Assembly: GCA_032718475.1 (NCBI GenBank)
Contig: JAUCBJ010008799.1
Span: 100,145 to 164,144 of the forward strand
DNA: 64,000 nt
Direction: 5' to 3'
Origin: Nemertoderma westbladi
Lineage: Eukaryota; Animalia; Xenacoelomorpha
In this document: piece by piece, positions 1 to 54,328 of the stretch
Numbering within the stretch: the stretch's first letter is position 1
Layout: every line of letters starts with the position of its first letter
Position numbers and translations under genes: made by a program
The notes under the pieces: model-generated
The model's database searches: none
Told to the model about the DNA's origin: nothing
Seen by the model: only the letters and a program-made list of their open reading frames with translations

Positions 1-1608
1 GTCCGGTTTTAACCAGAGAACCAGAGATAACCAGAGACCAGATTCTGGTTAGGTCCTGAGCCACCATCATTTACAGCATCCATCAGTTTGGACAACAGAG
101 ATGGAAATACACTCTTTGGGAGCAAGTCTAGTTTCGGGTGTTTTGTTTTAAAGTCATGTAGTATGTTTCTCCAACGTTTTTTTAATGGACCAAAAAAGGC
201 CACATCTTGCGGTTGCAATTTATCTGTGGAATTTGCAGGAAGGCAAATAAATTGTATATTGTGCAACTCACAAAGCCGAAGCACTTCCATCGACAAATGC
301 GTAGAGAGATTATCACCAATGGTAATCTTCTTAGTTTCGTTACCATTTGCTTTTAGGACAGGTAATAGTATAGAAATGAACCACTCTTCAAAACCCTTAG
401 TTTCAAACCATCCCGATGGCGAACACGAATATCTACTTCCTTGTGGGCCCCCAAGTGTTTATGATGTATAGACTGACCCAGCCTTATAAACTACGAATGG
501 GGGTAGCAATTTTCCTGCGGCCGATTTGCCTTTGAGTGATCCCTAACCCTTTCAGGGTATTTGGTGATCATAAGAACTTTTTTTTTGCCAGGGTCATCAG
601 ACAAGTTGCTTTCGCATAGTTAAATAAACAGTCCGATGTAACTCCTTCAGCCTCTTTTTCGAACCGATCAAAAAATTCATTCACAACTGTAGCATCTACT
701 TGGGCACGTTTACGTTTGATATTATTTCCTGCTATTCGAGTAGTTAAGAGTTCATGCCTTCCCAAAGACGAATAAACGAATTCATTACTTGGGAGATTAT
801 CCTTAAAAACCTTGCTTCTAACTCCTTTGGTGTCTAAAATAGTCTTAACCAAAATGCGAAGATCAAACGAATCAATTGGAAATCCCCAATCACACATCAG
901 TTGAATGTGATTTACCAATACATTCTCTTGTTCAGTTGTTAAAACGGGAGGTTTTCCTGGGGGGTTTGGTTTAAGTTTTTTTAATCGACATTGCAAAGTT
1001 GCTCGTGAAATTTGAAATTGTTTCTCTGCTTCACGCTGACTCATGCCTTTCTTTATAGCATCTAGTGCCTTATCCACATCCTCTGAGGTATAATTTAAGT
1101 AATTTCGAGCACCTAATCGCTTTTTGTGTGCTCTTGGCATGGTAGTCAAATATATAGTTATAAGTTAGTTAATAGTTATATATAAGTTAAATATATATTT
1201 CGTGTGTTTGTTATTTAATCACCAGTAGCAGTAAGCCTACCCCTGCCTACACAACAATGTCATATGCCATGTGGCTAAAGTTAAAGTTAACTACTGTACT
1301 TCATGAACACAAAACTGGTTAGATGGCCAGACTCAGAATATAAAATAGATGACTTATGACTGATTATCATTACATGTACAGGTACATGTACTTTGTTTAC
1401 AAGTAGGCCTACTGGTATACAACTGTACAATCTGTAGAGGTACATATTGAATTTCCCACTCTTTTAGAAGCGATGCCTATTTAAAAATTGCCTAGTCTGC
1501 ACTGGATGTAGTATTTTAAAGAAGCAACCTGTACAATTTTCATGATATTAAATTTGGTGGCCAGAGAATCCCCATGAAAAAGAAGTGGCTCAAGTTACCA
1601 CATTTACC
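1..1608 (-). mobile_element. pogo/Tigger-like DNA transposon relic; runs off the left edge of the window
   Basis: Contains transposase fragments at 9-1149. A candidate terminal sequence GGTAAATGTGGTAACTTGAGCCAC (- strand) lies at 1585-1608; this boundary is tentative. Confidence 0.6.
9..1149 (-). pseudogene. pogo/Tigger (CENP-B-like) DDE transposase, frameshifted
   Basis: N-terminal HTH-psq (ALDAIKKGMSQREAEKQFQISRATL) and CENP-B HTH (MCDWGFPI) in ORF 568-1149. DDE_1-type motif LPANSTDKLQPQDVAFFGPLKKRW in ORF 9-296. Confidence 0.85.
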
Positions 1609-2788: not shown

Positions 2789-3009
2789 CTTAGAAATGGG
2801 AAAATGAAGAAGTAGAACCAAGGCAAAAAAGGATTGGTGTTAAAATAAGTATTCATTGTTCCGAGTTCTGAAAGATACAATGGTTTAATAGATAACGTAG
2901 TTAATGTACCACAAAGTCCTATCTACCGCGGTGTTCGCTCTCACTACGAATGCTGGACACTGAAATTAAACTAAAATGTCGGTTTCAGTTTGCCACTTAA
3001 TTCAGTGAC

Positions 3010-3557
3010 TGTGACAGGATCCAGGAAGGATCCCGGTTTATCCGGTTGTTTAGTTCACGCATCCCCGCCGTGTCTATGAAAGGTAAAAAGAGTTCGTGTC
3101 GTTCGTCGTATATAATGATCGGTTGTTCGGGTATATAGATATGAGTATAGATATATAGATAATATTGTCGTATACAGAAGGCGGGATACGGTAATTAAAG
3201 TCCCGGTCCTTCCCTAGCTAAACTAACTAACCTAACTAGCACCAATATGATACTGAGATAACTGAACTGAAATTATTACTGCCAATTGGCTATATTGCAC
3301 GGTTGGCCTTGTTACTCTACCTAATCGATGCCTTTCCCCCCTCTGATTGGTTGATACCCTTGTTGGCGCCCTTTGGAGTGTTTCCGTTCACTCCACCTGT
3401 TCTCTCTGGGTTAGGGGTTTGGCCCCTGACCCTCATTGTGTTTCTCCTTCCCATTTTGTTGGGGTGACACGAGTTGGTGATTACCCAATCTCGTGGCCCC
3501 CAATATTGCTTATCGGCTTAACTTTATGGGGTGTTAGCGGGATTGAATAAGCTAACA
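3010..3557 (-). repeat. 3' LTR of copy A
   Basis: Direct repeat of 14080-14627; reads TGTTAGC...GTCACA on the - strand. Confidence 0.95.
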
Positions 3558-3595
3558 CTCCCCCCCATGCTATCTTCCCGGTGAGAAGATAGCAT
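3558..3595 (-). promoter_or_regulatory. Polypurine tract (GGGGGGGAG) with adjacent 11-bp perfect hairpin
   Basis: PPT at 3558-3566 abuts the LTR. Stem ATGCTATCTTC/GAAGATAGCAT at 3567-3595. Same arrangement in B (PPT 36037-36045) and C (PPT 49914-49922). Confidence 0.85.
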
Positions 3596-4273
3596 CCACC
3601 TTAAGTGCGCTATAATCCCGCTGGATCCCGATCTAGTATCGGGTGTGGGGTGGAATTATTTTCTCTCGGAGCCGGCTTTCCAGGCCGCTCCCTATGGGTA
3701 TGATAACGCTACCCTGCATGCCTGGCGTCTCATGTCGGGCCGATCGCGCTCACCTCTCACGCGACTTTTGTTTCCCCAACACTTTCGCCCTATCTCTTCT
3801 CCACTCTCACCCTAACTCTCTCATACCCTCGGACCTCCTCGTCCCTCACTCAGCCTCTTATTCTCCCCCCCCCCCCCCATACACTAGAATTGCGTCCGCA
3901 CTCTCTCCGCACTTCGCACTATTACTCCGTCCCTCAACCCCACTTTGACTACCTCATCCCTTCTGACGAATCTCCCCCCCTCTTGTGCCGTCGCACTCAA
4001 GAAGTGTGAAGTTGTCTGGTGTCTCGTCCATAGTGCCATAGTCAGTTATCCCCCCAGTCCCAGTAGCTAATTGAGAAAGGTTGTATGACTATAGTACTTA
4101 CTCCGAACGATATGTATTTGTAGATTACTAATTACTACGTACGTACATACAAATTGCACTTATATGATTATTTGCATTAATTAAATTTGTACTTAATAGT
4201 TCGTACGTCCCACGCGGCGCCTTCCAGGCGTACCACGTCCAAGTCTCAGTTTCTCTCCCTCGGCCCTGGGAAC

Positions 4274-6820
4274 CTATCTGTTCCTCTGGGGATAGTTCCC
4301 CCTGGCGTCCTCTTCCCTGGGTCGTTTCTTGGTTACCACCGCTCCTCTGGGGTCCGCTTTCTGCTTTCGGACATTCGCCGCCACCTCCCTGCTGATTCCG
4401 GTTGTTGGCTCCTTGGGCGCTGGTGTTATTAGTGCCCGATATCGCTTCGCCGGTGGCCCCTCAGAGTGGCCCTGTTGTCTCCCTCTGGTGGCGTCCCATA
4501 GGATCATCTTCATTGCTCGCGGTACGTGCTCCGCCAAGAAATCCCTAAACTCCCCTCGGTTCTGTGGCGTCCACCTGTCCAAATATCTTTGTGTGTTCAT
4601 CACTCCGGCATACGACGCCGCCGTTGCTACCTCTTGATAGGTAAACGGTAGCCTCCGCTTTATGATTTCCATGTGAGCCTCCTGATTGATAAGGAAGAAA
4701 CCCCACTTGAACTCCTGGGCCTTCATGCGCTGGCGCGTCATGGCCCCGACGTCGGCCCACTCCTCGAATCTCCTGAACTTCTCTTCGTCGTCCATCCAGT
4801 CGCACTGGCGTCCGTAGTGTCCCCGAAAGTTGCACTTTGGACATCGGTTATGCAACCGTGGACACGCCCCCATCCTGTGGCTCGGCTCTCGGCAGTAGAG
4901 ACAAAAGGTTCCCTTTTGGAACCGGTACAAGCAGCTCCTTTCCTGGTGGGTCTGTCTCCCACAGTAGTCGCAGCCGAGTACCAATGTCTCCCGCCCCACG
5001 TCGTCTTTCGTCCCAAGCGATCTCCGCGGTCTGTGGAGTCGCTGGTAGGCGAACTTCTCCACGTTGGTGTCTCTGTCTACGTCGATCTCTCCGCCCCTCT
5101 CGGGCATCGTCTCCCCGAATACTATCCGTGGTGCCGTCCCCGGTTGCTCGCCCAACCTGATAGTGCTCCCCGCGAAATCCATCGCCGGCTCCTCGTGCAC
5201 CCAGGTCCGCTTGCCGGATCTGTTCCAGAAGGCCCTCGCCCCACTGGCCGTCACCACCCTTCCGCCAACCCAGTCCGTGTCCGAGTGGCCTATCCTCTCG
5301 ATGGGCGGCATCTCTCCGAACTCGTCGTCGTCGTCCTCCTCCTCTGGCAGTGGCTCCAACCCCGGTATCCCGATGGATCCACTATGTCCCTTCCCGCCTT
5401 GGCTCTCGCCCGTAGCTCTCCATCCCTCTAGCTCCCTTAACTTCCTTGGCGGTTGGTCGCCTTCGGCGCCCGCTGGTATGGGCATCGCTTGCAACCCCGA
5501 CGTCGACTGTTTCGGTGATCCCACCGTCCATCCCAGTTCTCGCCCTAGAGACTCCCCCGAACTCCCTGACGAAGTCCAATGAAGCTCGTCTAAGCCTGCC
5601 TGTTCCTCGAAGCCGTAACTCTGTGTCCTGGCCTCCTCTTCCCTCTCCTCTGCTTCTATCCTCTCCCGTCTAGCGACTTCTTCCAGTCGCTTTGCTTCTC
5701 GTCTATCCGTTTCTAGCTGCTCCCATCTCTGATACGGCGTATCTGTCTCCCCGTCTACCAGATGTCGGCTGTTGTAGTACACCGACTCGCCCTTCAGCCC
5801 CGGGTGGTCTACCAGACCGTCGAAGGCCATTTTAAAGGCTCTCCTGTAGCTTAGGGGTGATCCCGATAACAGAAATGCCGCTGGTTCCCTCTCGATAACC
5901 ACGGTCATAAATAAGTTAAGCAAACTTATCATCATCCAATCTTCCTGCAGGATATATCGCTTCTGATATACCTTTATCGCTCCTCTGCGGAATTGATATA
6001 CCTCTTGCTTTCCCGGTCTCGCTCCCCACTTTAGCGAGTTCGCTAGTTCTGCTCCGTATTCTTCCCTGAACTTCCCCCAGTCCATCGGTTTGTGGCACAC
6101 GAGCCCCAATAATTGGCCCATTGCCACCGCCCCGCATTGGCCTGTGTTTTCGACTACCCCCAACCCATCCGGTGCCGTCATAGCCATAAAGACCTTCTGC
6201 ATATCCAGGAGGTTGGTGGCGTCCGGACCGATGATTCTCTCCGCATCCTCGCGAATCGCCGATCCTACTTTCGTCGTCGACTTCTCTCTTACCAAGACTT
6301 GTACCGCTTTCGGTAACCGGTTTAATTTCGGCCCGTCCTTCTTCCCATACGTTCCTAGATCGAATAAGAAGATGTCCCCATTTGGCGCGGCCAAATGTAG
6401 GAGTATGGTCCTGGCCGACCCCGCCGATCCTCGTCTCGAACCCGCCTCGTCTTCCACGGTTCCCTCGTCGTCTAGGATCATATATCCTCCCCTGTTGACG
6501 GACTCTATGAATCTCTTCCAGTCCTTCCTCGGTGATTCCCTCGGGTACTTCGGAATCCCGAACTTCGCCTCGTCCCCTTTCACCACGTAGTGGAAGTGTT
6601 GGAAGATCGCGTTGTCCAGCGACGGCGTCCCGTAGGTCCCGACCAGCCGCTGTTCGTGCATCTCCCGGAAGTGATCCTGCAGCGCTCGTGCCGCGTGACC
6701 CCTTTCCAACCTCTCGTAGTATCCTCTCGTCTTCTCTTCCGGATGCCTCTCGGTGAAATCCACCAGTATCTCCTTTCCTCCTGACTCCGCCTTTCTCTTT
6801 CTGATCAATTTGCTCGCCAT
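4274..6820 (-). CDS. Accessory ORF: DEDDy (WRN/EXD/RNase D-like) 3'-5' exonuclease, coiled-coil/acidic linker, 3 CCHC zinc knuckles (~848 aa, open)
   Basis: ExoI YMILDDEG; LLHLAAPNGDIFLFDL; LPKAVQVLVREKSTTKVGSAIRED (ExoII); LLDMQ; QKRYILQED (ExoIII-like). Knuckles CDYCGRQTHQERSC, CLYCREPSHRMGAC, CPKCNFRGHYGRQC. Confidence 0.8.
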   Translation of the reverse strand: MASKLIRKRKAESGGKEILVDFTERHPEEKTRGYYERLERGHAARALQDHFREMHEQRLVGTYGTPSLDNAIFQHFHYVVKGDEAKFGIPKYPRESPRKDWKRFIESVNRGGYMILDDEGTVEDEAGSRRGSAGSARTILLHLAAPNGDIFLFDLGTYGKKDGPKLNRLPKAVQVLVREKSTTKVGSAIREDAERIIGPDATNLLDMQKVFMAMTAPDGLGVVENTGQCGAVAMGQLLGLVCHKPMDWGKFREEYGAELANSLKWGARPGKQEVYQFRRGAIKVYQKRYILQEDWMMISLLNLFMTVVIEREPAAFLLSGSPLSYRRAFKMAFDGLVDHPGLKGESVYYNSRHLVDGETDTPYQRWEQLETDRREAKRLEEVARRERIEAEEREEEARTQSYGFEEQAGLDELHWTSSGSSGESLGRELGWTVGSPKQSTSGLQAMPIPAGAEGDQPPRKLRELEGWRATGESQGGKGHSGSIGIPGLEPLPEEEDDDDEFGEMPPIERIGHSDTDWVGGRVVTASGARAFWNRSGKRTWVHEEPAMDFAGSTIRLGEQPGTAPRIVFGETMPERGGEIDVDRDTNVEKFAYQRLHRPRRSLGTKDDVGRETLVLGCDYCGRQTHQERSCLYRFQKGTFCLYCREPSHRMGACPRLHNRCPKCNFRGHYGRQCDWMDDEEKFRRFEEWADVGAMTRQRMKAQEFKWGFFLINQEAHMEIIKRRLPFTYQEVATAASYAGVMNTQRYLDRWTPQNRGEFRDFLAEHVPRAMKMILWDATRGRQQGHSEGPPAKRYRALITPAPKEPTTGISREVAANVRKQKADPRGAVVTKKRPREEDARGNYPQRNR

Positions 6821-7299
6821 TCCGAACACTCACTCGCTCACCTGCAAGGTGGTGCCTTACCAAGGCGCAATACAGATGAGTGATGTATCTAGGATGTTCT
6901 GTACGGTCCGATAATGGCCTATTCCTTACTTAACTGCGCCTTTTAGCCTAAATTATTACTAATTAATTCTGAAGCTAGTAAATACACCCTAATTTCGATT
7001 TCTGTCCGTTACTTTTATTATGTTCCAGAATAACTTTCCTAGTGTTGCCATAATTTGTAACTTTCAGCCCTATTCTATTTATTTTTAGTTATTTTAATTC
7101 TACTGTCCTACTACTTACTATTGCCTATGGATTATTCTATTCTCTAATCCACATTCTGGCCTACTCTGTGGGCCTGTGCAGTACAGCAGTATGCGTCGTG
7201 TGGCCACACGATTTACCCAGCTGTACTCATATGCCCCCCTCTCGCTACTAACTGCTAACTAATATCTATATCTTATATACCCTTTTACCTCTTACTCTC

Positions 7300-7990
7300 T
7301 CTCTAACTAACGGTACTACGTACCCTCTAACTCTTTCTCTAACTAACGGTACTACGTACCCTCTAACTCTCTAACTAACTAACGGTACTACGTACCCTCT
7401 AACTCTTCTCTAACTAACGGTACTACGTACCCTCTAACTCTCTAACTAACTAACGGTACTACGTACCCTCTAACTCTTCTCTAACTAACGGTACTACGTA
7501 CCCTCTAACTCTCTAACTAACTAACGGTACTACGTACCCTCTAACTCTCTCTAACTAACTAACGGTACTACGTACCCTCTAACTCTCTAACTAACTAACG
7601 GTACTACGTACCCTCTAACTCTTCTCTAACTAGCTAATGGTACTACGTACCCTCTAACTCTCTAACTAACTAACGGTACTACGTACCCTCTAACTCTTCT
7701 CTAACTAACGGTACTACGTACCCTCTAACTCTCTAACTAACTAACGGTACTACGTACCCTCTAACTCTTCTCTAACTAGCTACGGTACTACGTACCCTCT
7801 AACTCTCTAACTAACTAACGGTACTACGTACCCTCTAACTCTCTACTAACTAACGGTACTACGTACCCTCTAACTCTCTAACTAACTAGCGCTACTACGT
7901 ACCCTCTTAACTAACTAACTAACGCTAGGTACTACCGTACCTCTTAACTAACTAACTCTAGGTACTACGTACCTTCTTACTGACTAACTT
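7300..7990. repeat. Tandem hairpin array in copy A (~19 units of ~35-38 bp)
   Basis: Repeated core GGTACTACGTACCCTCT separated by CTAA/CT-rich spacers. Confidence 0.95.
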
Positions 7991-8174
7991 CTGCCTACTA
8001 ACTGCGTACCTACTATGTACTATTATTTTATTTTTATTTTTATTTTTTATGTGTGGGAAGGGCGTCTCGCCCTCAATCCCACCCCCCTCAGTCCAAACTT
8101 GGACGACTAAACTCATGACTAACTCCACTAAGGTGCCCCTTCTAACAGACAGGTAACACCTCTGCCCGCACCTT

Positions 8175-11100
8175 TTACGGATCTAACTCTTCCATCCCAG
8201 TCCAACCTATTGGACAACTCAGCGACCCAAGGGGTGATTCCTCCAGCAGGCAACTCTCCCACTGCCACCCTATAGGTCCTCTAATTCTTCGCTCCGCTCT
8301 CCTTGTCAATTCTGGTGGTCTTTTCTCCTGTCTTTGGAAATGCTGTCTGTTATTTATGTTTCTGATCTCGTGGTCGTCCCTTGGCGGCAAAGTGCCACCC
8401 TTCAACGTGTCACCCGGCGGTATAATGCCGCCCCTGTTCTTCTCCTTAATCTTAGATGCCACCTCTGCTGGCCTCCCCCTTAATATGTGTGCTGGCATTA
8501 AAGGCCTCGACGACCCCCGTTCGTCCTTCGGTATACACGATCTCTGCCCATGTAATGCCCCTTCGCACTCTGTCAGTCCCGCGTGCGTCTGCAGCACGCC
8601 TCCTACTTTCCCGGCTCCTTTGTCCATCACACGCCCACCCACGGGCTTCTCAGCCCCTGGTCTGGTCGTCTCAAGTCTTCTCCCTTTCCATTTAGTCCTC
8701 CTGCTCGGCCTCCCCCTTGTCGGCATGCCTCCCAACCGGACCGGCATCTCTTCCGGACACTCCTCCGGCCTGTCCCCCGGACATTTTGCCGTCCGCTCCT
8801 CTCCATCTCCATACCGATGCTTGCTGGGACTCTTGTTCCAACCCATCGTCTCTAGATCTTCTGCATCCATGCCATTCTCCTCCGCCCACTCTCTTGGTGT
8901 TGCTTCCACTTCTAGCTGTCTACCACTATTGCCCATCTCTGGCCTCTCCTCTATCTCGTCGACAGTTCCTGGCACCATGCATCCTGAACTCTCAGACACA
9001 TGGAATGGTATATTACTCTTAATTGGGCCTGTCAGTGTCCACCCGAATGGTGTTAATATCGCCACCGGGTCACACTGCTTGTCTTCGCCGAAGACCGTTT
9101 GCATTCTTTCGTGGGCCGTTGGGCAGTCCATTCCTACTATGATGGATACCTTCCTAACGTCCACGTCTGGGATTGAGAAGTCAATGTCGTCCAGGAATTT
9201 ATATTGCTCGACCTCGATGTTGGTTGGCCGCCTGGCATTGATATTAATTGACTCTATCACTTGGATGGGGTCGATGGTTGCCCCATAGTCGCATCCCGGT
9301 GCCACTGCTGCAATTGCGCACCGTCCTGTTCTCATCTCCAGGATCTCATCTTTGCTAGAGATGGTTGTTACCGCCATTCTGCTTGGCCTCGTTCTCAATC
9401 CTATCTCTTCGGCCACCCATTCCTCGACTAATGTGAAGGCAGCTCCACTATCAACCAGCATTAGTGTTGTTACTGATCGATTGCCTTCCCCAATCACTCG
9501 CACGGGTACTACTCCAAGTAACACCGTTCCTCTCTTCTTCGCCCCTACTGTGCTCGTTGCCATCGTTTGGCCTCTCCTTTGACCAAACTTGACCGGCTTC
9601 TCCTTGCATTCCCTTGCTCTATGTCCACTCATCACACATCGCGAGCAGATTTTATTGCTCAACGCATAATCTATCTGATCTTGCCTAGGTAGCGCCTGCC
9701 AGTACCTGCAGTTCATGGTTTGATGAAGCGCATTTGCGTGTAGCTGGCATTTGCTCTTTGGGTCGTAGCCCTCCTTATACAGCGCATTGCGTATCGCAGC
9801 TGCGTTTGTACCAAAGTCCCTACTATTCTTATTGTTTGGATTCGGCCTACTGGACGTACTGGGGTTATATTTATTCGTGTTGTTATTGTTCCCCTGTCCG
9901 TTCCATGGTGTTGTCTTATCTTCGGCTAGCTGTGGACTTGCAGTCCCCTGCGTCGCTGCATATGGCAATGATTGCCTGAGCCTCGGTAATGCGTTTGATG
10001 TATTGTGCTCTGGTTTCGGTCTATGGTAATCCGTCTTCGGTCCCTTTCCCAGGCTATCTTCGCTATAGACTGGGTCAGTTATTAGTTCAGCCTCGTAGTT
10101 TAAGAAGTTTGACATTTCTTCTAAACCCGGTTCCGCACCCTTCTTGTCTCGAGTGGAGAAAGCGATCTTCCTCCACTTGTTGCGCAGCCAGTTCGGTAGT
10201 GCCTGCGCTATCGTGGTGATGTTATTGGACGCGTTGAGCTCGTATGGCGCGTCTAGCGTCTTCAGCACGATTAGCGCCTTTTCGACTTTGTTAGCGAACG
10301 TCTTAATGCTAACGGGATTATCCTGTAGGCCACCCGATGTTATGCCTCTCAGTGTCTGTCTGATGATCTTGGCCGGGTGCCCGTATTCCCTGTCCAGTGC
10401 CCGCCATGCTGTCGTGAAGCCGCCCTCTATTCCTTGATATTGCCTCACGATATCGTATGCTGGGCCTCCCGTGTATACTTGCAGATACTTTAGGCACTCC
10501 GCCTGCGTCAAGTTTTTTGTTAGTATTTCGTTACTATACATGCGCCGAAACTGTAGATATTCTTCCGGCCTACTCCCATCGAATTTGAATGGTTCCACGG
10601 GTGGTAACTCGATCCTCGTTTTCAACGCATCGATCAACGTGGCCATCCCCATCGCCTGCGCTTCCAATGGATTCGATGGGTGCTGTATAGTTTCTCCTGT
10701 CTGGTGCGGTTCGTCCGTCCTATTTCTTGATTTTCTTTGACTTGGGTATGTCATCGGGGGTAGCGGCCCCCTCCATATCTCTGTGTCACACGACCTATTT
10801 TCATCCAAGGGTCTCGTTGTTCTTGCTCCTATCGGGGTATATTGTTGATATTGTGATGGGGGAATGTCACCCTGTCCCCCCCCCCACCGGTATGTTTGGT
10901 ACTGGGGTTGATGTTAATATATTGGGGCCCATACACCTATCCGCAATAATTCCCCCCTCCCCTGGGTATATGTTATGTCCCTGCATGCTGTAGTCATACT
11001 GCTGTACTGGTACCGGTATAGGCCTATCAGCTTCTGGCCTACTCGCCGGTATGTATTCCGCGACTTCCGGGTTTAATCCCGTTGTCCGCGCTATCCTATC

Positions 11101-14016
11101 GCCTACATTGCCTCTCTCAGTATGGCCTATGGTATGTGCAGTAAGGCCTACAGTATGTCCTACAGTCTGCATGTGTCGCTCGGGATCGAAGTTTATTCTT
11201 CTCGAATAGTCCTCCCCGTGGCTACCGTATTCTCGATCGGTAGGTACATTCCGTCGGAAAGTTTCTCTTCGACCCCCCTCTCTACTGTTCTCGTCTTCGT
11301 ACCGGTACATCGCGTACCCCTCCATCGGCGCGTAATGCACCTCACCAGGTCGCATCTCTCCGGGGTGACGGCAATCTCCCGGAGTCCGACCCTACTGACT
11401 CTCCGTTCTCATCTCGACTACCGACGGCTCGCTATCCGTCCTCGCTCTTCTATCGTTCGCGGCGATACTTTTACTACTGTCTTCTCTTCTTCTCCTTTCA
11501 GTGTAGTATTCCCGCTCGTGAGATCTCTCGTCGACCTCCTGGTTAAACCCCACTGTTCTTCTTCCCTCTTCTGATCGGGCTCGACGCTTCGTCCGCCCTC
11601 TCACGACGTCAACCTGTCTCTCTCTGCTCGGTCGCACGCCGCTGGGGATACTCCCAATCCCCCTATTACTCTCCGTTGCCGGGTGTTGCGGTTTACCTAT
11701 TTCGGCCCGCGCATTATCCGCTGACGGCTGTGGAGCACTCTCTGCCCCCCCCTTTCGCCGCTAACTCGCTGTTGTGGGGCTCTTTTAGCCCCCCCCCCAC
11801 TCGCCACATCTAACTTCGCTATCTCTCACCCCGCTACTATATCCCTCTCTCATCGACACATCAACCCTACCGCGGTCGGGTCTATTCACCCCCGCCTCTC
11901 CCTCTGCTATTGCGTGGCCTACCAGGCCCTCTACCTCCTGCCTACCAACTATGTGGCCTACCAGGCCCTCGCTGGGTCTACCCGACCCAGCCACTCCCTG
12001 CCTACCAACTACGTGGCCTACCAGGCCCTCTCTGGGTTGGCTCAATCCCGCCACTTCCGGCCTACCAATTGTACGGCCTACCAGGCCCCCGTCTGCCTGG
12101 CCATACACGCCCGACGTGTTTACGTTAATAGCACCCATATTGGAAACGGAATTAATTTGTTCGTTTGAAACAAAATCATTTGAATTATTTTGTAAATTCG
12201 GGCTTGGATCATTATTTAAATTATTTGAATTATTTTGCACGTTCAAATTGAAATTATTATTTGTACTTAAATTTAAATTACTGCTACTAGGTAAAGTATT
12301 ATTTGCTGCAATAAAAGGATTAGGGTTGTCCAATACGGTACTATTAATATTAATGACGTCTACTATAGCATTATTATTACCCCACCCCCCCCCCCCCCCC
12401 CCGCCCATACGGTCACACCAGTCTTGGGTCTGTCGTGCGGTCCCTGTAAGTGGGGTATTAATAAATGTATCCACGGCCCCTGGCTCCTCGAAAATACTCG
12501 AGCTAGCCCCACTCTCAGACGCCCCTACTCGCGCCAATTCCCGTTCGCGCGTATGTATAGCTTTGTATCCTGTAAGCTCACCTTGACGTCTTTCTAGTTC
12601 CTTTTGCTCACACTCCTTCCTTGCCATTCTCTCCTTACACTCCCGTGCGTCCCGTTCGGCCAATTCCAACTCTCTTCTAGCCCCCTCCCTTCATCTCGCC
12701 TCACGCTCTCTGCGTTCGTTTTCCTCTCTCGCCTCGCGTTCTTTGCACTCGTTTTCCTCTCTCGCCTCGCGTTCTCTGCACTCGTTTTCCTCTTTCGCCT
12801 CACGTTCCCTATGTTCCGCCTCACGCTCCTTGCGCTCAATTTTCTCTCTCGCTACACATTCCCTACGTTCCGCCTCACGCTCTTTGCGCTCATTTTTCTC
12901 TCTCGCCTCGCGCCCTTCTTGTTCCTTCCTCCCTACTTCCTCACACTCCCTAAGGCTTCTCGCGGCCCTTTCGGCCCTCTCTCCGGTTTCCTTAATCAAC
13001 GCCATTTCCCTCTCTAGCAGCACTCTCCCCTCCTCTAACCGTCTACCTACTTCCCTTTGACCTTGCTCTATTAAATCGAGACGGTACGTGGCATTTATCT
13101 CTCTCACCCGTCTTTCTTTCACGGAGGATGTAGCAGACTTATCGGTTGTAACGGATTCCCTCCGCCTCCCCGTCCTACTAACTTTCCCCCGCCTCCCGGA
13201 ACTTCCTCCGACCGACGAGGCCGAATCCTCGGGGTTAACCTCGGATTCGCCCTCCTCGGGTCTCTCCCAACCCACTAATTTTACTCCCTGGGCATCGACT
13301 AAGTATGGCCCTACGTACACTATGCTAGGTTCCATACCCCTACACCGCCATAGGTCATACAGTTCCTCGGCAACCCCTCTCGCTCTCTCCTTGGCCAGTT
13401 CTCTTTGCCCGAAGCGCATTAGATAATAAAAGTGTCTATTCGACTCACGTAGTCCTTTCTTTAGTTTTACCTTGTCTATCTTCGCCCCTCCTCTGGCCTC
13501 CTCTAATAGTCTCCGGGTCGCGTTGTAGGCCCGTCGAAGTCGATCAGAAACCCCGACGTCCTCGTCGCCGACCTCCCTTCCGTCTCTCCGGGTCCGGCGT
13601 CGTACCGTCGGCCCCACCGTCGCCGTTTCGGTGGGCCGCTCGTCGCCCTCGGCCTGTGGCTGGCCGGCGACGTCGGTACTGACATCTCCTCCATCTCTTC
13701 GGGTCCGGCGTCGTACCGTCGGCCCCACCGTCGCCGTTTCGGTGGGCCGCTCGTCGCCCTCGGCCTGTGGCTGGCCGGCGACATCAGTACGTCGACCCAC
13801 GTCTCGTGTCGACTCGTCTCCTTCTCCCTCCATCTCGCTCTCTCCTTCTCTCGGCTCGACCTCGGGTTCCAGGCGGCCCCCCTCATCCTGAGCTGCCGGA
13901 TGACCCGTTACCGATGGGTCCGGCATTGTGGGCCTGTACCGCCTGGTTGCGGCCTCGCGGATCGTTAACTCTTCGTCCGGGGTCCGCGTCGGCGTTGTCT
14001 CTCCCGACTGACTCAT
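8175..14016 (-). pseudogene. gag-protease of copy A with degenerate pol remnant (one stop plus frameshifts)
   Basis: ORFs 12691-14016, 11785-12669, 10867-11355 and 8175-10808. Contains FKFDGSRPEEYLQF (DUF1759-like), the CSRCVMSGHRAREC knuckle and LVDSGA protease. No YxDD RT motif. Confidence 0.9.
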
Positions 14017-14067
14017 CTCGCTTGGTGATTGGTGGCTGGTAGTTTAGCTAGCTAGGGCGGCAGCTCT

Positions 14068-14079
14068 GAGTTTAATTAC
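14068..14079 (-). promoter_or_regulatory. Non-tRNA PBS-position sequence of copy A (GTAATTAAACTC)
   Basis: Directly follows the 5' LTR. Complementary to the transcript of LTR 14261-14272 (11/12 match). No TGG tRNA-type PBS. Confidence 0.7.
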
Positions 14080-14627
14080 TGTGACGGGATCCAGGAAGGA
14101 TCCCGGTTTATCCGGTTGTTTAGTTCACGCGTCCCCGCCGTGTGTATGAAAGGTAAAAAGAGTTCGTGTCGTTCGTCGTATATAATGATCGGTTGTTCGG
14201 GTATATAGATATGAGTATAGATATATAGATAATATTGTCGTATACAGAAGGCGGGATACGGTAATTAAAGTCCCGGTCCTTCCCTAGCTAAACTAACTAA
14301 CCTAACTAGCACCAATATGATACTGAGATAACTGAACTGAAATGATTACTGCCAATTGGCTATATTGCACGGTTGGCCTTGTTACTCTACCTAATCGATG
14401 CCTTTCCCCCCTCTGATTGGTTGATACCCTTGTTGGCGCCCTTTGGAGTGTTTCCGTTCACTCCACCTGTTCTCTCTGGGTTAGGGGTTTGGCCCCTGAC
14501 CCTCATTGTGTTTCTCCTTCCCATTTTGTTGGGGTGACACGAGTTGGTGATTACCCAATCTCGTGGCCCCCAATATTGCTTATCGGCTTAACTTTATGGG
14601 GTGTTAGCGGGATTGAATAAGCTAACA
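14080..14627 (-). repeat. 5' LTR of copy A
   Basis: Direct repeat of 3010-3557, followed by TSD GTGAC. Confidence 0.95.
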
Positions 14628-14994
14628 GTGACAATTACCATATGATACACTTACTGTATAGTTGTGTGTGGATTTCAGTTGATTCTATTCAATATAAGTT
14701 ATACAATACTGAACAACAGTATACGGTATCATTGTTGTATTAATATTGTTCTATCAGTATAAATTAACATACGATAATCATAATGAAAATTATTTAATAA
14801 TTCCAGTTTTTAATTTCATTTTCAATTAGATAACAAATTTAGTAATATATTATTTCAGTTTTGGGTACACTGTTAGACAAAAGTTAGTAGGCCTACTACT
14901 GTACAACTGTATGAATAGTTGATGTTAGCGGACAGTAGGGTGTGTGAGGGAGACTTGAGTTAAGGGGAGACTTGATATTTTTGAATAACTCAAA

Positions 14995-17526: not shown

Positions 17527-18205
17527 TTGAATAACTCAAAAACTATTGTAAATTATTTCACAATAACACACCATAATGTTCAAAATACTTGTAGGCTACA
17601 CCCACGCAACAGTGTTGTATTACCTTTTGGTTATTTTTTGTTTTATTGCCAATAAACGTTTTATGGGTTCAAAAGTAAATTGTTAACCTTTACAACGAAT
17701 GAAAATGCGCACCCTTTTCAAATTATATCATTTAATATAAAAAAAAGGGGTGCGGGTCGATTCGCCCCTTGACCTATTCGCACCAAGTCTATTCGCCCCA
17801 GTAATATAATATACAGTATGTAATATAATAATGAATAGGGTCTATACTATAACTAACTATCACTTTTCAAATATTTTTATCTTATCTAGGTATCATTTTT
17901 TATCATTCTAATTCAAAAAATCGAATTATAAAGGGAAAAGGTACACATGTTGGTCTAGTGCGATAATTTACCAATTACAATTACTATACGTGTTCTGTAC
18001 AGCTGTGTAGTATATTGCATACATAGTATGACATTAGCCTAGACATGCTAGAAAAATATTTAAAACAATAAACATGTCAGCATGTAGCCAGCCTGCTCAT
18101 AAGTCATAATTCATTCTACATCTTGCTGTTCTGTAATTATGCCCAACAATTTATTGTTGCACCATCAATACACAACAATTGAATCATCAAATGAGACAGG
18201 GGGGG

Positions 18206-18255: not shown

Positions 18256-18660
18256 CGAAAATACGGGCCATTTTTTATCAACGAGTCATTCCTATGAAAA
18301 AAATATTTTCTAAAATTTGTAGAAAGCAGAGCAAGAAAGTGCATCTTTCGACTACATTCGATCCCTAAATTTGTGATAGAAAGTGAAAATTCTAGCTCAG
18401 TCGAGGAGTCAGGTGCTGTGTTATTAGTTCGAGACCTGATGGCAGGGAAATAATAATACATTGGTAGTAAAACTTTAAAGAGCTAATTATGAACAATGGA
18501 GAATTTAATTGAATTTTTTTCAATTTAATTTTAATTATTTGTCGTCAATAACATAATATTGCTGATATTTATGACTCTCTGTATAAAAGAGCTTCCGGTA
18601 ATTCTGTCGGGAATCGAAAACGTAAACTCGCCGAACGGTTCTAAAAAGGTAGTAACAAAA

Positions 18661-20085: not shown

Positions 20086-20927
20086 ATTCGAGTAGGTCAA
20101 CCCCTTGATACTCATTTAAGAATATTCCCATTTAGATTGGTCTAAATTACCGAATTTACAAATACTTTTGAAATAGGTTAATGGACTAATCTCATTGTTA
20201 GATTTAGCAGCCGAAGGTAGAATACATAAATCTGATGCAGAATCCAAGTACGAACTGGCTTTTTATGCACTGGCAAATGGCAGGCCTCAGTTATTTTTCA
20301 GTTATTTTCTTTCCGTTTTTGTATTTAGTCAGAGTTGCTGTTTTTGTGATTTATTCCATTTTTGTTTTTTTTTGTTTCACATTGCGAAAGAATACTGTGC
20401 GACTGTTTGTGTGGAAATAATCCTGCCAAAGGCATTATTAATTTTGTCGGCAGCGAACTGGTTGAACTCCATTATGATTATAGTGGACAAATACAGCTCG
20501 ATTTCTGCATTTCCTCTTATTTTTTTATTGAACTTCCTTATTGTATTAGTATTAAATTTAAATTTTTTTTTTTGCTATGCCATAAAAATACTCCTCCATC
20601 TCTCCACAATAATTGTTATATCGCTATACTCAAAAATCAATATGAATTTTCAGTACAGCAGCAGCGCCATAAATGTTTTTGATGTGAAGTTTGCATTCGA
20701 CCCAAGTGTCTACGTCCCTTTATTTGTACATGTACACTATTTTTTTATCCTTTTTTTCATGCAGGGTTTTAATATTAAACTATCAGCAATAGATTTCGAA
20801 ACAGCAGAAAATGATGGCAATATTTTCCTACACCAGCAATTTAAGTATCGAAATGTTCAACGAATTACTCAAAGAATTATCCAATTTTTTTTTTCCTTTA
20901 AAAGATATGAACTAATACAAACTCATT

Positions 20928-26494: not shown

Positions 26495-26504
26495 GTGTTA
26501 AAGT
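26495..26504 (+). promoter_or_regulatory. Non-tRNA PBS-position sequence of copy B (GTGTTAAAGT)
   Basis: Exact reverse complement of ACTTTAACAC at LTR 26270-26279. Confidence 0.75.
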
Positions 26505-29577: not shown

Positions 29578-29689
29578 GCTAAGTATTTATTTATTTAAAA
29601 TCGATCAATGATATAAGGAACAAAATTTAATTTGTATGTGCAAAGTATCATAAATATACTAATAAAGTTAAAGTAAAGCTTATATTGTA

Positions 29690-32776: not shown

Positions 32777-35349
32777 ATGGCAGAGAAACTTGTTCGAAAG
32801 AGAAAGCGGAGTTGGGAGGAAAGGAGATACTGGTGGATTTCATCGAAAGGCATCCGGAAGAGAAGACGAGGGGATACTACGAGCGGTTAGAGAGGGGTCA
32901 CAAAGCGCGAGCGCTGCAGGACCATTTCAGGGAGATGCACGAACGGCGACTGGTCGGGACCTACGGGACGCCGTCGCTAGACAATGCAATCTTCGAGCAT
33001 TTCCACTGCATGGTGAAGGGAGACGAGGCGAAGTTCGGGATTCCGAAGTACGCAAAGGAGCCACCGAGAAAGGATTGGAAGAGGTTCATAGAGTCCGTCA
33101 GCAGGGGAGGATACATGGTCCTAGACGATGAGGGGACTGTGGAAGACGAGGAAGGTTCGAGAAGAGGATCGGCGGGGTCAGCCAGAACCATACTCCTACA
33201 TTTGGCCGCGCCAAATGGGGACATTTTCCTATTCGACCTGGGAACGTATGGGAAGAAGAACGGGCCGAAGTTGAACCGGTTGCCAAAGGCGGTGCAAACC
33301 CTAGTAAGAGAGAAGTCGACGATAAAGGTGGGATCGGCGATCCACGACGATGCGGAGAGGATCATCGGTCTGGAGACCCCCAACCTCCAGGACATGCAGA
33401 TGGTCTACATGGCTATGACAGCGCCAGACGGGTTGGGACTAGTAGAGGACGCAGGCCATTGTGGAGTGGTGACGATGGGCCAGCTAATGGGGCTCGTATG
33501 TCACAAACCAATGGACTGGAGTAGATTCAGAGAGGAGTACAGAGCGGAGTTGGCAAACTCGCTGAAGTTGGGAGCGAGACCGGGGAAGCAAGAGGTGTAT
33601 CAACTCCGGAGAGGAGCGATAAAGGTATATCAGAAGCGATATATCCTGCAGGAGGACTGGATAATGATAGGTTTGCTAAACCTATTCATGACCGTGGTTA
33701 TCGAGAGAGAACCAACGGCATTCCTGCTATTGGGATCACCCCTGAACTACAGAAGAGCCTTCAAAGTGGCTTTCGAGGGTCTGGTAGACCACCCGGGGCT
33801 GAAGGGCAAGTCGGTATACTATAATTGCCGATATCTAGTAGACGGGGAGGTGGATACGCCATATCAGAGGTGGGAGCAGCTAGAGGCGGATAGACGAGAG
33901 GCGAAGCGATTGGAAGAAATCGCTAGGCGAGAAAGGAGGGAGGCAGAAGAAAGGGAGGCGGAAGCTGGAGGAGAGAGCTATGGATTCGAGGAACAGGTGG
34001 CCTTAGACGAGCTACACTGGACATCAGGGAGTTCGGGCGAGTCTCTAGGGCGAGAATTGGGGTGGACGGTGGGATCACCGAAACAGTCGACATCGGGATT
34101 GCAGATGATGCCCATACCAGTGGGCGCCGAGGGCGATTTCGCGCAGGGAAGGCCATGGGAACTGGAAGGATGGAGAGTCACGGGCGAGAGCCAAGGTGGG
34201 AAGGGTCACAGTGGATCCACCGGGATACCGGGATTGGAGCCACTCACAGAGGAGGACGAGGATGACGACGAGTTCGGAGAGATGCCGCCCATCGGGAGGA
34301 TCGGCCACTCGGACACGGACTGGGTTGGCGGGGGGGGGGGGGGGGGGGGTGGTGACGGCCAGCGGGGCGAGGGCCTTCTGGGATAGACCCGGCAAGCGGG
34401 CCTGGGTGCATGAGGAGCCGGCAATGGATTTCGCGGGGAGCACCATCAGGTTGGGCGAGCAACCGGGAACGGCACCATGGGTAGTATTCGGAGAGAGATG
34501 CCCGGGCGGGGCGAGGAGATAGACGTGGACAGGGACGCTAACGTCCAGAAGTTCGCTTACCAGCGACTCCACAGACCGAGGAAATCGCTTGGGACAAAAG
34601 ACGACGTGGGGCGGGAGGCATTGGTACTCGGCTGCGAGTACTGCGGGAGGCAAACTCACCAGGAAAGGAGCTGCTTGTACCGATTCCAGAAAGGGACTAG
34701 CTGTCTCTACTGCCGCAAGTCGAGTCACAGGATGGGGGCATGTCCACAGTTGCACAAGCGGTGTTCTAAGTGCAACTTCCGGGGGCACTACGGACGCCAG
34801 TGCGACTGGATGGACGACAAGGAGAAGTTTAGGATCTTCGAGGAGTGGGCCGATGTCGGCGCCATGACCCGGCAGCGGATGAAGGCCCAGGAATTCCGGT
34901 GGGGCTTCTTTAATATTAACCAGGAGGCCCAACTGGAGATCATCAAATGGAGACTTCCGTTTACTTATCAGGAGGTGTCAACAGCGGTGTCGTATGCCGG
35001 AGTGATAAATACGCAAAGGTATTTGGACAGGTGGACACCACAGAACCGAGGAGAGTTCAGCGATTTCTTGGCGGAGCATGTGCCGCGGGCTATGAAAGTG
35101 ATCCTATGGGACGCCATTAGGGGGAAACAACAGGGCCATTCGGAGGGGCCACCCGCGAAGCGATACCGGGAGCTAATAACACCAGCGCCCAGGGAGTCGA
35201 CGACAGGAATCAGAGAGGTGATGGCGAGGATCAGGAATCTAAAAGGGGATAAGAGCAAGGGAGCGGCAACGGCCAGGAAACGACCGAGGGAGGAGGACGA
35301 CAGAGGGAAGGAGTTGAGATGGTTCCCAAAGTCAGGTGAAACGAACTAG
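32777..35349 (+). pseudogene. DEDDy exonuclease/zinc-knuckle accessory ORF of copy B (frameshifted)
   Basis: ORFs 32812-34386, 34196-34522 and 34477-35349 are highly similar to the ORF in A; all motifs retained. Confidence 0.85.
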
Positions 35350-50613: not shown

Positions 50614-53138
50614 CTAGTTCGTTCCACCTGACTTTGGGAACCATCTCAACTCCTTCCCTCTGTCGTCCTCCTCCCTTGGTCGTTTCCTGGCCGCTGCCGC
50701 TCCCTTGGCCTTATCTCCCTTCAGACTCCTGACCCTCGCCGTCACCTCTCTACTAATCCCCGTCGTCGACTGCTTGGGCGCTGGTGTTATCAGCTCCCGG
50801 TATCGCTTCGCTGGTGGCCCTTCCGAATGGCCCTGTTGTTTCCCCCTAGTGACGTCCCATAGGATCACTTTCATCGCCCACGGCACATGTTCCGCCAAGA
50901 AATATCTGAACTCTCCTCGGTTCTGTGGCGTCCACCTGTCCAAATACCTCTGCGTATTTATCACCCCGGCATACAACGCCCTGACGACGAGTGGGCCTCC
51001 TGGTTAATATTAAAGAAGCCCCACCGGAACTCCTGGGCCTTCATACGCTGCCGTGTCATGGCGCCGACGTCGGCCCACTCCTCGAAGATCCTAAACTTCT
51101 CTTCGTCGTCCATCCAGTCGCACTGGCGTCCGTAGTGCCCCTGGAAGTTGCACTTCGAACACCGGTTGTGCAACCGTGGACACACCCCCATCCTGTGGCT
51201 CGACTCGCGGCAGTAAAGACAACTAGTCCCTTTCTGGAATCGGTACAAACAGCTCCTTTCCTGGTGGGTTTGCCTCCCGCAGTAATCACAGCCGAGCACC
51301 AATGTCTCCTGCCCCACGTCGTCTTTCGTCCCAAGCGATCTCCGCGGTCTGTGGAGTCGCTGGTAAGCGAACTTTTGGACATTGGCGTCCCTGTCCACAT
51401 CTATCTCCTCGCCCCTCCCGGGCATCGTCTCTCCGAATACTACCCGTGGTGCCGTTCCCGGTTGCTCGCCCAACCTGATGGTGCTCCCCGCGAAATCCAT
51501 CGCCGGCTCCTCATGCACCCAGACCCGCTTGCTGGGTCTATCCCAGAAGGCTCTCGCCCCACTGGCCGTCACCATCCTCCCGCCAACCCAGTCCGTGTCC
51601 GAGTGGCCGATCCTCCCGATGGGTGGCATCTCTCCGAACTCGTCGTCATCCTCGTCCTCCTCTGGGAGTGGCTCCAACCCCGGTATCCCGGTGGACCCAC
51701 TGTGTCCCTTCCCACCTTGGCTCTCGCCCGTGATTCTCCATCCTTCCAGCTCCCCTGGCCTCCTCAGTGTATAATCGCCCTCGGCGCCCGCTGGTATGGG
51801 CGTCGTCTGCAATCCCGATGTCGACTGCTTCGGTGATCCCACCGTCCACCCTAATTCTCGCCCTAGAGACTCGCCCGAACTCCCTGATGATGTCCAACGA
51901 AGTTCGTCTAAGGCCGCCTGTTCCTCGAACCCGTAGCTTTCCCTTCTTGTTTCCTCCTCCCTTTCTTCTGCCTCCCTCCTTTCTCGCCTAGCGATTACTT
52001 CCAATCGCTTCGCCTCTCATCTATCCGCCTCTAGCTGCTCCCACCTCTGTTATGGCGTATCCACCTCCCCGTCTACTAGATATCGGCAATTATAGTATAC
52101 CGACTCGCCCTTCAGCCCCGGGTGATCTACCAGACCCTCGAAAGCCACTTTGAAGGCTCTTCTGTAGTTCAGGGGTGATCCCGATAGCAGGAATGCCGTT
52201 GGTTCTCTCTCAATAACCACAGTCATGAATAGGTTTAGCAAACCTATCATTATCCAGTCCTCCTGCAGGATATATTGCTTCTGATATACCTTTATCGCTC
52301 CTCTCCGGAATTGATACACCTCTTGCTTCCCCGGTCTCGCTCCCCACTTCAGCGAGTTTGCCAACTCCGCTCCGTACTCCTCTCTGAATTTACTCCAGTC
52401 CATTGGTTTGTGACATACGAGCCCCATTAGCTGGCCCATCGCCACCACTCCACAATGGCCTGCGTTCTCTACTAGCCCCAACCCGTCTGGCGCTGTCATA
52501 GCCATGTAGACCATCTGCATGTCCAGGAGGTTGGGGATCTCCGGACCGATGATCCTCTCTGCATCGTCGTGGATCGCCGATCCCACCTTTATCGTCGACT
52601 TCTCTCTTACTAGGGTTTGCACTGCCTTTGGCAACCGGTTCAACTTTGGCCCGTTCTTCTTCCCATACGTTCCCAGGTCGAACAGGAATATATCCCCATT
52701 TGGCGCGGCCAAATGCAGGAGTATGGTTCTGGCCGACCCCGCCGACCCTCTTCTCGAACCTCCCTCGTCTTCCACGGTCCCCTCATCGTCTAAGACCATG
52801 TATCCTCCCCTGCTGACGGACTCTACGAACCTCTTCCAGTCCTTTCTCGGTGGTTCCTTTGGATACTTCGGTATCCCAAACTTCGCCTCGTCTCCCTTCA
52901 CCACATAGTGGAATTGCTCGAAGATCGCGTTGTCTAGTGATGGTGTCCCGTAGGTCCCGACCAGCCGCTGTTCGTGCACCTCCCTGAAATGGTCCTGCAG
53001 CGCTCGCGCTTTGTGACCCCTCTCTAACCGCTCGTAGTATCCCCTCGTCTTCTCTTCCGGATGCCTTTCGGTGAAATCCACCAGTATCTCCTTTCCTCCC
53101 AACTCCGCATTTCTCTTTCGGACAAGTTTCTCCGCCAT
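50614..53138 (-). pseudogene. DEDDy exonuclease/zinc-knuckle accessory ORF of copy C (premature stops, small deletion)
   Basis: ORFs 52050-53249, 50961-52004 and 50614-50976 are homologous to those in A and B. Confidence 0.85.
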
Positions 53139-54170: not shown

Positions 54171-54328
54171 TAACTTCTATCTGCCTACTTACTTACTACG
54201 TACCTACTACGTACTATTACTCTCTCTTTCTCTTTCTTTATTTATTTATTTTTTTTATATTTGTGTGTGGGAAGGGCGTCTCGCCCTCAATCCCACCCCC
54301 CTCAGTCCAAAACTTGGACGACTAAACT

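Follow-up and report, generated by a model that had tools for sequence, protein, structure and literature searches.

The stretch of 64,000 nucleotides of Nemertoderma westbladi DNA analysed here (the window) contains three related retroelements, referred to as A, B and C. Element A is a BEL/Pao LTR retrotransposon lying on the (-) strand, with 548-nt LTRs that are 99.3% identical and have TG...CA ends (3' LTR at 3010..3557; 5' LTR at 14080..14627), a 5-bp target duplication (3005-3009 and 14628-14632) and a PPT at 3558-3566. A perfect 11-bp hairpin (3567-3595) directly precedes the PPT, forming with it a unit at 3558..3595 on the (-) strand, and is kept in A, B and C. The empty insertion site of A is present in sequencing runs X1 and X2. 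Summed read depth is approximately 46,000-63,000 over most of ORF3, the open reading frame described below, and 66-78 on the flank, a ratio that is not to be read as a copy number.

The coding part of element A is reduced to a broken gag-protease (8175..14017, (-) strand; DUF1759 and aspartyl protease). RT, RNase H and integrase are replaced by about 850 nt of other sequence, which is common to B, where pol is deleted in the same region, and a tandem-repeat spacer (7242..8002, without strand) that occurs in B and C too lies between the pol remnant and ORF3. The assignment to BEL/Pao is based on DUF1759 in A, B and C, DUF5641 in C and Peptidase_A17 in relatives such as locus L059; the BEL-type order PR-RT-RH-IN is found in C and in L059, A and B having gag-protease only. 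In the pol tree the pol of the window forms a long branch, with a best identity of 33%. No element-encoded tRNA or ribozyme was detected by ARAGORN on the window and 60 loci, or with Rfam.

ORF3 of element A (4274..6820, (-) strand) encodes 848 amino acids and is open from ATG to stop. It runs in the sense of gag and pol, between the pol remnant (ORF end at 8175) and the PPT, and its 848-codon frame has remained open despite the deletion of pol, as an earlier note on this DNA had remarked. The same note had extended the feature to 6930; the frame itself was recovered, while the last 110 nt correspond to upstream non-coding sequence. This leader (6821..6930, (-) strand) is conserved in A, B and C and carries a splice-site-like motif, G/GTGAG, about 22 nt ahead of the ATG. 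The product has a basic N-terminus and its top 19-residue hydropathy window reaches 1.35, a maximum that falls inside a helix of the nuclease model, in agreement with the proposal that the protein has no signal peptide or TM segment and is not an envelope. Basic NLS-like motifs are located at aa 7, 789 and 831.

The N-terminal portion (aa ~60-342; 5795..6643, (-) strand) was assigned by model, Foldseek and profile to the DEDDy-type 3'-5' exonucleases. The model (pLDDT 79.9) adopts an RNase H-like DnaQ fold, and Foldseek retrieved 57 matches at E<=0.001; among the matches listed, all were of DEDD type. Structural neighbours were superimposed with Z 13-14 and rmsd 3.2-4.0 over 170-204 residues, the best wide match being the Nibbler EXO domain (Z 13.8, rmsd 3.3, 204 aligned), with EXD1 and Egalitarian also among the top ones; when full-length ORF3 was searched, all common matches fell within aa 52-363. 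By sequence, EXD2 was the best match of the family profile (2.1e-13), with ExoI and ExoII aligned and the ExoIII stretch pairing weakly, in a second stretch. The WRN/EXD2/MUT-7/RNase D-type fold anticipated by the note was therefore borne out by both structure and profile searches. The domain shares fold and motif spacing with EXD2, WRN, Nibbler (Mut-7), EXD1 and Egalitarian at 12-19% identity, but ORF3 has none of the partner domains of these cellular proteins. Pfam assigned no family to whole ORF3 or to the exonuclease domain alone; for PF01612 (DNA_pol_A_exo1; gathering cut-off 23.6 bits) the window protein gave no match and 3 of 41 relatives gave matches below the cut-off, the best at 23.3 bits. 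A single-sequence search of PDB sequences with ORF3 returned 0 matches.

The motifs quoted in the note are all found in the protein (LDDEG at 116, LLHLA at 140, IFLFDL at 150, KVG at 184, LLDMQ at 204 and YILQED at 289). The predicted active site consists of D117 and E119 (6464-6472), D192 (6245-6247), Y289 (5954-5956) and E293 (5942-5944), all on the (-) strand. D117, E119 and D192 are present in A, B and C, and neither D nor E varies among the 26 rows of alignment A6, which had been selected for being intact or almost intact. In ExoIII, Y289 is present and the acid is E293 in all three window copies; the acid column of alignment A1 holds D in 15 and E in 9 of 31 rows. The window protein thus reads D-E-D-(Y)-E, whereas DEDYD occurs in 20 of 22 intact rows; DEEYD was found in 1 of 42 complete rows.

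The exonuclease is followed, as had been described, by a long charged helix (aa 362-403; 5612..5737, (-) strand) and a disordered linker (aa ~409-610), which has an acidic segment at aa 493-500, so that in the model about 200 disordered residues part the nuclease from three exact CX2CX4HX4C zinc knuckles. These knuckles (aa 617-630, 640-653 and 660-673; 4802..4972, (-) strand), identified by motif and conservation, reach pLDDT 86-94 in the full-length model and resemble in profile matches the RNA binders Lin28, nucleocapsid and the RNase D of Trypanosoma brucei (TbRND). A derivation of the knuckles from the gag of the element found no support (probability 2%). Behind them, alignment and model delimit a conserved helical domain (aa ~678-782; 4475..4789, (-) strand) with E686, G692, T695, W706 and G707 as conserved residues, for which no family name was found.

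TbRND also consists of a DEDDy exonuclease followed by CCHC-type zinc fingers, and these fingers are reported to bind RNA and to raise cleavage greatly (PDB 7C42/7C45; PMC7797062). It was matched by profile at 1.5e-6, the knuckles accounting for most of this match, and by fold at Z 12. According to the same source, however, TbRND is a cellular guide-RNA trimmer, compact and with four fingers close to the nuclease, whereas ORF3 is mobile, holds three knuckles behind a helix and linker of ~270 aa and has the extra helical domain. The shared architecture is probably convergent.

Homologues of ORF3 occur in element B (25889-36641; ORF3 at 32777..35349, (+) strand; 80% amino acid identity to A) and element C (49342-62953; ORF3 at 50653..53138, (-) strand; 88% identity over aa 1-716). 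Both are broken, so that of the note's claim of an ~850-aa ORF in all three copies the homology holds, while the frame is open in A only. In B the long ORF is not in the frame of the ATG (32777), and a run of ~20 G is followed by a frame-shifted segment with two stops (34384-34386 and 34411-34413). C is interrupted by two stops (52050-52052, 52017-52019) and, near 50991, by a frameshift. Where a break coincides with a homopolymer run, it may reflect an assembly error. Element D (39423-47955) was considered as an ORF3-less control and rejected, as it is cut off inside the integrase.

The dN/dS check across copies that the note had suggested gave values of ~0.1, not near 1, indicating purifying selection: 0.118 (0.091-0.148) for A-B and 0.097 (0.070-0.135) for A-C, with 0.05-0.08 in the knuckles. 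Among the best-supported ORF3 variants listed from other sequencing runs, 22 of 25 are third-position and 21 of 25 synonymous. ORF3 is kept beside gag in the RT/integrase-deleted subfamily A/B. The ORF3 of B is far nearer to that of C (dS 0.19) than to that of A (dS 0.65), even though the pol deletion is common to A and B; recombination therefore occurs, and autonomous copies may have been the only ones under selection.

Relatives were collected by the knuckle-domain motif, so that the presence of knuckles is built into the sample and exonuclease-only relatives could not appear in it. The scan gave 80 flanked metagenomic loci, 42 of them with a BEL pol upstream; the exonuclease domain is found in 40 of these, and the other two (L047 and L059) have the knuckle domain only. 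Viral contigs gave 0 matches to the motif. An exhaustive protein search yielded 79 matches, and the N-terminal domain is common to 32 of 41 long protein matches (11 of them the seed). All 16 supported splits of the pol tree recur in the ORF3 tree (27 elements), an agreement pointing to one old acquisition followed by vertical inheritance with pol throughout a deep BEL lineage. ORF3 is thus a family-wide gene, which the note had not recognised. The reading of ORF3 as an envelope gene, or as a captured host exonuclease drifting neutrally, has only the env position in its favour and is hardly credible in view of the lack of TM segment and signal peptide, the nuclease fold, the dN/dS of ~0.1 and these congruent trees.

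The ExoI acids are missing in 17 of 42 complete rows. The 13 such elements in the pol tree group as a single clade (support 100) in which the domain is still conserved: identity there is 42.5% between exonuclease domains and 54.9% between pols, against 34.7% and 51.6%, respectively, in a ten-member intact group. As judged from these residues, catalysis is not universal in the ORF3 family, which qualifies the note's proposal of an RNA-processing, proofreading or anti-silencing enzyme.

The preferred explanation, to which about an even chance is given, is that ORF3, a vertically inherited BEL/Pao accessory gene, encodes an RNA-binding protein that serves the life cycle of the element and has 3' trimming as an auxiliary activity. 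Its product joins a predicted DEDDy fold to three knuckles; the knuckle domain would grip single-stranded RNA, the 3' end of which would be trimmed by the exonuclease in elements that, like the one in the window, have it intact. RNA is suggested as substrate by the analogy with TbRND, and the element's own RNA would be the target. Binding would be the conserved core and catalysis an auxiliary part open to loss, with which the conserved dead clade and the knuckle-only loci L047 and L059 are consistent. Several findings speak against this reading. The RNA enzymes Nibbler, NrnC and RNase D are tied with the DNA exonucleases of WRN and Pol A (Z within 1), and the fold thus favours neither substrate. 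The ExoIII acid of the window is Glu instead of the Asp of most intact relatives, the nuclease and the knuckles are far apart, unlike in the compact TbRND, and the recombination seen among the copies may mean that only autonomous ones were selected. A functional precedent is provided by CERV of the Caenorhabditis elegans element Cer1, an LTR accessory protein that handles the genomic RNA of its element (PMC10309623); Cer1 is however a Gypsy element, the words 'exonuclease' and 'DEDD' have 0 occurrences in the available text of that paper, and no homology was detected by anything tested.

The tie with WRN and family-A polymerase exonucleases, which score equal to the RNases, also speaks for a DNA-side enzyme that would proofread reverse transcription or clear untemplated additions and flaps from cDNA 3' ends ahead of strand transfer or integration. 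The NLS-like motifs fit such a role, and Dada DNA transposases offer a parallel in a transposon-encoded DEDDy domain with intact catalytic residues, for which 3'-end processing was proposed, although there the domain lies inside the DDE transposase of a DNA transposon and is described from a fungus and a brown alga (PMC3706591). Nevertheless, this function is improbable, given that a deep clade thrives without the catalytic acids, that the CCHC knuckles match RNA binders and that ORF3 is separate from pol.

Nibbler, EXD1 and Egalitarian, all among the top structural matches, have small-RNA and RNA-transport roles. ORF3 might accordingly counter silencing by trimming or degrading host piRNAs, siRNAs or their precursors, the dead clade acting as a decoy for the small-RNA machinery; this is possible, though clearly less probable than a role in the element's own life cycle. 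Roles of this kind for such DEDDy proteins are in part covered by PMC5408684. Retention of an env-position accessory gene over deep time, the high copy number of the family and the parallel between the conserved dead domain and EXD1 and Maelstrom agree with it. On the other hand, unrelated DEDDy enzymes score level with Nibbler, the sequence comparison puts EXD2 and not Mut-7 first, and purifying selection with strict pol co-inheritance would suit a partner within the element at least equally. It is tentatively conceivable, with similarly limited confidence, that an animal BEL/Pao lineage encodes a Nibbler/Mut-7-like counter-defence against piRNAs or siRNAs of which one branch has become a dead decoy, as happened in hosts with EXD1 and Maelstrom.

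A further candidate process is priming. The PBS of A (14071..14079, (-) strand) has no TGG and is complementary to a segment of the 5' LTR (14261-14269), the predicted self-primer. TGG sites are absent from A, B and C; instead, LTR and PBS can pair perfectly over 9, 10 and 11 nt, and the differences are compensatory. The tested word was held by 11, 1 and 14 of 5000 shuffled LTRs, and a further paired primer/PBS change is seen in population data. Judged by this complementarity, the BEL family of the window looks self-priming. In the minimum-energy structure of 241 nt of A (z -1.3) the primer-PBS duplex does not appear. A PBS complementary to the own LTR and not to a tRNA is known from Tf1/Tj1/sushi, Tcn1 and TAR (PMC4600332, PMC6317226), where self-priming is described for Gypsy and Copia groups; here it is predicted for BEL/Pao. 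ORF3 could then mature the primer, trimming element RNA back to the PBS duplex. In Tf1, however, the cut is made by the RNase H of RT (PMC4600332), and a TGG-type PBS is seen in 13 of the 14 LTR regions of relatives covered, among which are four with an intact and six with a dead exonuclease. As the sites of relatives are of tRNA type, ORF3 is no specialist for priming; a link between exonuclease and self-priming was rejected, and primer maturation is very unlikely.

DEDDy ORFs in the env position, RNase D-like and without TM segments, were described in the Gypsy-like Juno and Vesta LTR elements of bdelloid rotifers, and others in Athena/Terminon (PMC5408684, PMC6431247), with RNA 3' processing or silencing as proposed functions (PMC5408684). 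As presented in these sources, the rotifer LTR lineages are retrovirus-like and not BEL/Pao, their motif is DEED and not D-E-D-E or DEDD, and their ORF3 was gained at least 2 times on recent branches, whereas here it is fused to three knuckles and a helical domain and was inherited together with pol in a deep BEL lineage; 'Pao' and 'CCHC' have 0 occurrences in the available text of PMC5408684. Extra genes of BEL/Pao are described mainly as captured envelopes (PMC13524379). In the literature searched, which did not extend to Repbase, Dfam, GyDB and subscription journals, no report of a DEDDy ORF3 in BEL/Pao or of the knuckle fusion was found; only the rotifer, Terminon and Dada DEDDy reports appeared, in line with the earlier note.

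ORF3 therefore represents a non-envelope accessory gene that a deep BEL lineage has carried along with its pol. The rotifer study did not settle the activity or usefulness of DEDDy ORFs in retroelements (PMC5408684); the ORF3 family is clearly under purifying selection, comes in dozens of natural variants and allows intact, dead and domain-less forms to be contrasted. The role of a retrotransposon 3' exonuclease, be it RNA maturation, proofreading or anti-silencing, is by this means directly testable with single expressed proteins.

The open reading frame in the env position of BEL/Pao element A (ORF3-A; 848 aa, 4274-6820, on the element's sense strand) is flanked by the pol remnant on one side and the PPT on the other. 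The earlier note had described an ORF of about 850 aa in three related copies (A, B and C), with exonuclease motifs, three zinc knuckles and no TM segment, and this observation is partly confirmed: every motif quoted is present in the ORF3-A protein, the CX2CX4HX4C knuckles are all exact (aa 617, 640 and 660) and no hydropathy segment exceeds 1.35, while the frame is open in A and has homologues in B (80% identity) and C (88%) but is broken by stops and frameshifts in both. The dN/dS of ORF3 across copies is not near 1, being 0.118 for A-B (779 codons, with aa 520-572 excluded because B is frameshifted over that stretch), 0.097 for A-C (714 codons) and 0.244 for B-C; the values for the gag-protease controls were 0.064 and 0.196. 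Among the ORF3 variants listed from four other sequencing runs, 22 of 25 occupy third positions and 21 of 25 are synonymous, one silent variant falling in the codon of the predicted catalytic residue E293.

The window consists of nested transposons. Among them are three related BEL/Pao LTR elements, A and C on the minus strand (3010-14627 and 49342-62953) and B on the plus strand (25889-36641), A and B forming a non-autonomous subfamily that is recombinant with C in ORF3. A inserted recently, since its 548-nt LTRs are 99.3% identical, its target duplication is 5 bp and contigs of two other runs (X1, X2) join across its empty site (3003-14631), so that the insertion is polymorphic. A second BEL family, D (39423-47955), is truncated within the integrase and lies between direct repeats of 558 nt (99.6% identity) that lack TG...CA ends as aligned. 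Non-LTR retrotransposon ORFs (endonuclease-RT) and an HTH_psq transposase fragment occur at 15004-17542 (-), 18535-24755 (+), 48909-49484 (-) and 568-1164 (-); within the second stretch, 20916-24755 is open over 1279 aa. An RT-RNase H-integrase deletion is common to A (~8070-8950) and B (~30790-31680), the gap being filled by ~850 nt of other sequence that prolongs the gag-protease frame of A by ~260 codons and carries a homologous frame in B. A structured 3' UTR (z -2.4) occurs in A (3567-3740) and at the equivalent place in B and C; it ends in a perfect 11-bp hairpin abutting the PPT and has no match in Rfam.

The Pfam check proposed for DNA_pol_A_exo1 gave no family for the ORF3 protein, and a single-sequence search of the PDB returned no match. 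When 1.84 billion representatives were searched exhaustively, 79 matches emerged, nearly all via the knuckle region. A profile of the N-terminal domain, seeded with the N-terminal parts of 11 matches and leaving out the window protein, matched the latter at aa 99-311 (4e-26) and 32 of the 41 matches of at least 400 aa (the 11 seed sequences counted in); the two-domain architecture is therefore a family trait. EXD2 was the best match of the family profile (5e-12 at full length, 2.1e-13 for the nuclease part alone), followed by TbRND, Egalitarian and WRN; D117/E119 (ExoI) and D192 (ExoII) are well aligned to EXD2, and Y289/E293 (ExoIII) align no more than weakly, in a second stretch. AlphaFold modelled aa 85-335 with a pLDDT of 79.9. 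The top structural neighbours of this model, all scoring about equally (Z 12-14), are Nibbler EXO, TbRND, EXD2, NrnC, WRN and the exonucleases of family-A polymerases, and an Atlas feature match of 0.94 pointed to a cluster with PF01612 in 34% of members, three unnamed clusters ranking above it. Profile and predicted structure confirm the proposed WRN/EXD2/RNase D-type fold. In the full-length model the nuclease is accompanied by a 40-residue charged helix, a disordered stretch of ~200 residues and a confidently modelled knuckle-plus-helix domain, whose profile matched only TbRND, Lin28 and nucleocapsid knuckles.

By analogy, ORF3 would be an RNA-binding accessory protein, a reading given about an even chance: its knuckles would hold single-stranded RNA, probably that of the element itself, and the nuclease, where intact, would trim 3' ends. 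A precedent for this binding-plus-cleavage logic is TbRND, which depends on its zinc-finger domain to bind RNA and to cleave it efficiently (PMC7797062), and CERV sets one for the handling of element RNA by an accessory protein (PMC10309623). A counter-silencing factor, suggested by the non-specific likeness to Nibbler/EXD1, is doubtful.

A degenerate motif scan for knuckles 2-3 returned at least 120 metagenomic loci, of which 80 flanked loci were analysed and 40 short ones left out; one accession series supplies 67 of the 80, and locus counts are no gauge of host breadth. BEL/Pao is a metazoan group. Among the matches listed, the nuclease domain occurs in 62 of the 80 loci (the profile was built partly from them) and a same-strand BEL pol lies upstream of ORF3 in 42, 40 of which carry the nuclease; upstream sequence is too short in 27, and 11 have more than 1200 nt upstream with no pol match. 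Of these, L022 is a BEL element that has suffered a deletion, L071 looks like a chance match, and in several the contig is filled by a long ORF3 N-terminus. A BEL and one LINE query, with Pfam on 30 ORFs, found no other element class, and nuclease-only forms are invisible in a set chosen by knuckle motif. Three more of the 11 share one 507-codon ORF without pol nearby, which recurs in three metagenomes (L008:1481-3001, L032:1908-3428, L072:2822-4342); it combines two knuckles with a degenerate exonuclease and breaks off ahead of the helical domain. This stand-alone ORF is a relic or domesticated copy.

Trees of ORF3 and pol were compared by FastTree for 27 elements having both genes, C being represented by the ORF3 of A. 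Each of the 16 pol splits supported at 0.95 or above is found again in the ORF3 tree, which indicates that ORF3 was acquired long ago and has since been passed on together with pol; 15 recur with the nuclease alone and 12 with the knuckle domain alone, and patristic distances correlate (Spearman 0.89). In the pol tree the window's family sits on a long branch, and its exact position is uncertain.

Catalytic motifs were read in the 42 of 53 aligned nuclease domains that are ungapped at all five motif positions: 22 carry D-E-D/E-Y-D/E (intact), with the window protein as the sole DEDYE, three carry DEDHD, and the ExoI acids are missing from 17 (dead). All 13 dead elements placed in the pol tree make up a single clade (support 100), and homology of their domain to the intact version has a probability of 99.8%. 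Mean nuclease-domain identity is 42.5% at 54.9% pol identity in this clade versus 34.7% at 51.6% for ten intact elements, so the dead-clade domain is no less conserved. Judged by sequence, catalysis would be optional in the family. In sister BEL elements (L047:3341-6529, L059:6880-9648) ORF3 keeps the knuckle domain, and acidic low-complexity sequence replaces the exonuclease. DNA proofreading or end polishing, compatible as it is with the fold, is ill-suited to a thriving dead clade and is considered unlikely.

Primer maturation was considered because A, B and C have no tRNA site (TGG is absent after the 5' LTR) and show PBS-LTR complementarity with compensatory differences. The pairing, a self-priming signature, is exact over 9 nt in A (14071-14079 with 14261-14269), 10 nt in B (26495-26504 with 26270-26279) and 11 nt in C (62723-62733 with 49544-49554), the LTR segment lying ~190-220 nt upstream, and paired changes at 14075 and 14265 are carried by most of the depth in runs X1, X2 and X5. 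A TGG-type site is present in 13 of the 14 LTR regions examined from relatives with either an intact or a dead nuclease, so that ORF3 is not tied to self-priming and a primer maturation enzyme is very improbable, although a local primer role may exist within the window's family. A CCCCAC-motif precedes the PPT in 12 of 17 dead-exonuclease loci (L002, L027, L034, L037, L038, L039, L060, L062, L065, L066, L068, L069) versus 1 of 18 intact ones, some UTRs being too short to tell. The motif matches, in reverse complement, the long PBS of L039 and thus duplicates the 3' end of the primer tRNA, presumably tRNA-Lys; no tRNA gene was called at these loci.

ORF3 has partial counterparts in other mobile elements. 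In the accessible text, DEDDy ORF3s are known from rotifer Juno and Vesta (PMC5408684) and Terminons (PMC6431247), described there without evidence of selection or activity and lacking the CCHC knuckles present in the window ORF3, and a DEDDy insert is reported in Dada transposases (PMC3706591). No literature report of a DEDDy ORF3 in BEL/Pao was found, annotation in Repbase, Dfam or GyDB being possible, and the word "exonuclease" does not occur in the available portion of a 2026 survey of envelope-carrying elements (PMC13524379). A whole lineage of BEL/Pao elements possesses a non-envelope ORF3 combining an EXD2/RNase D-like domain with three zinc knuckles, which exists in intact, dead and nuclease-less forms.
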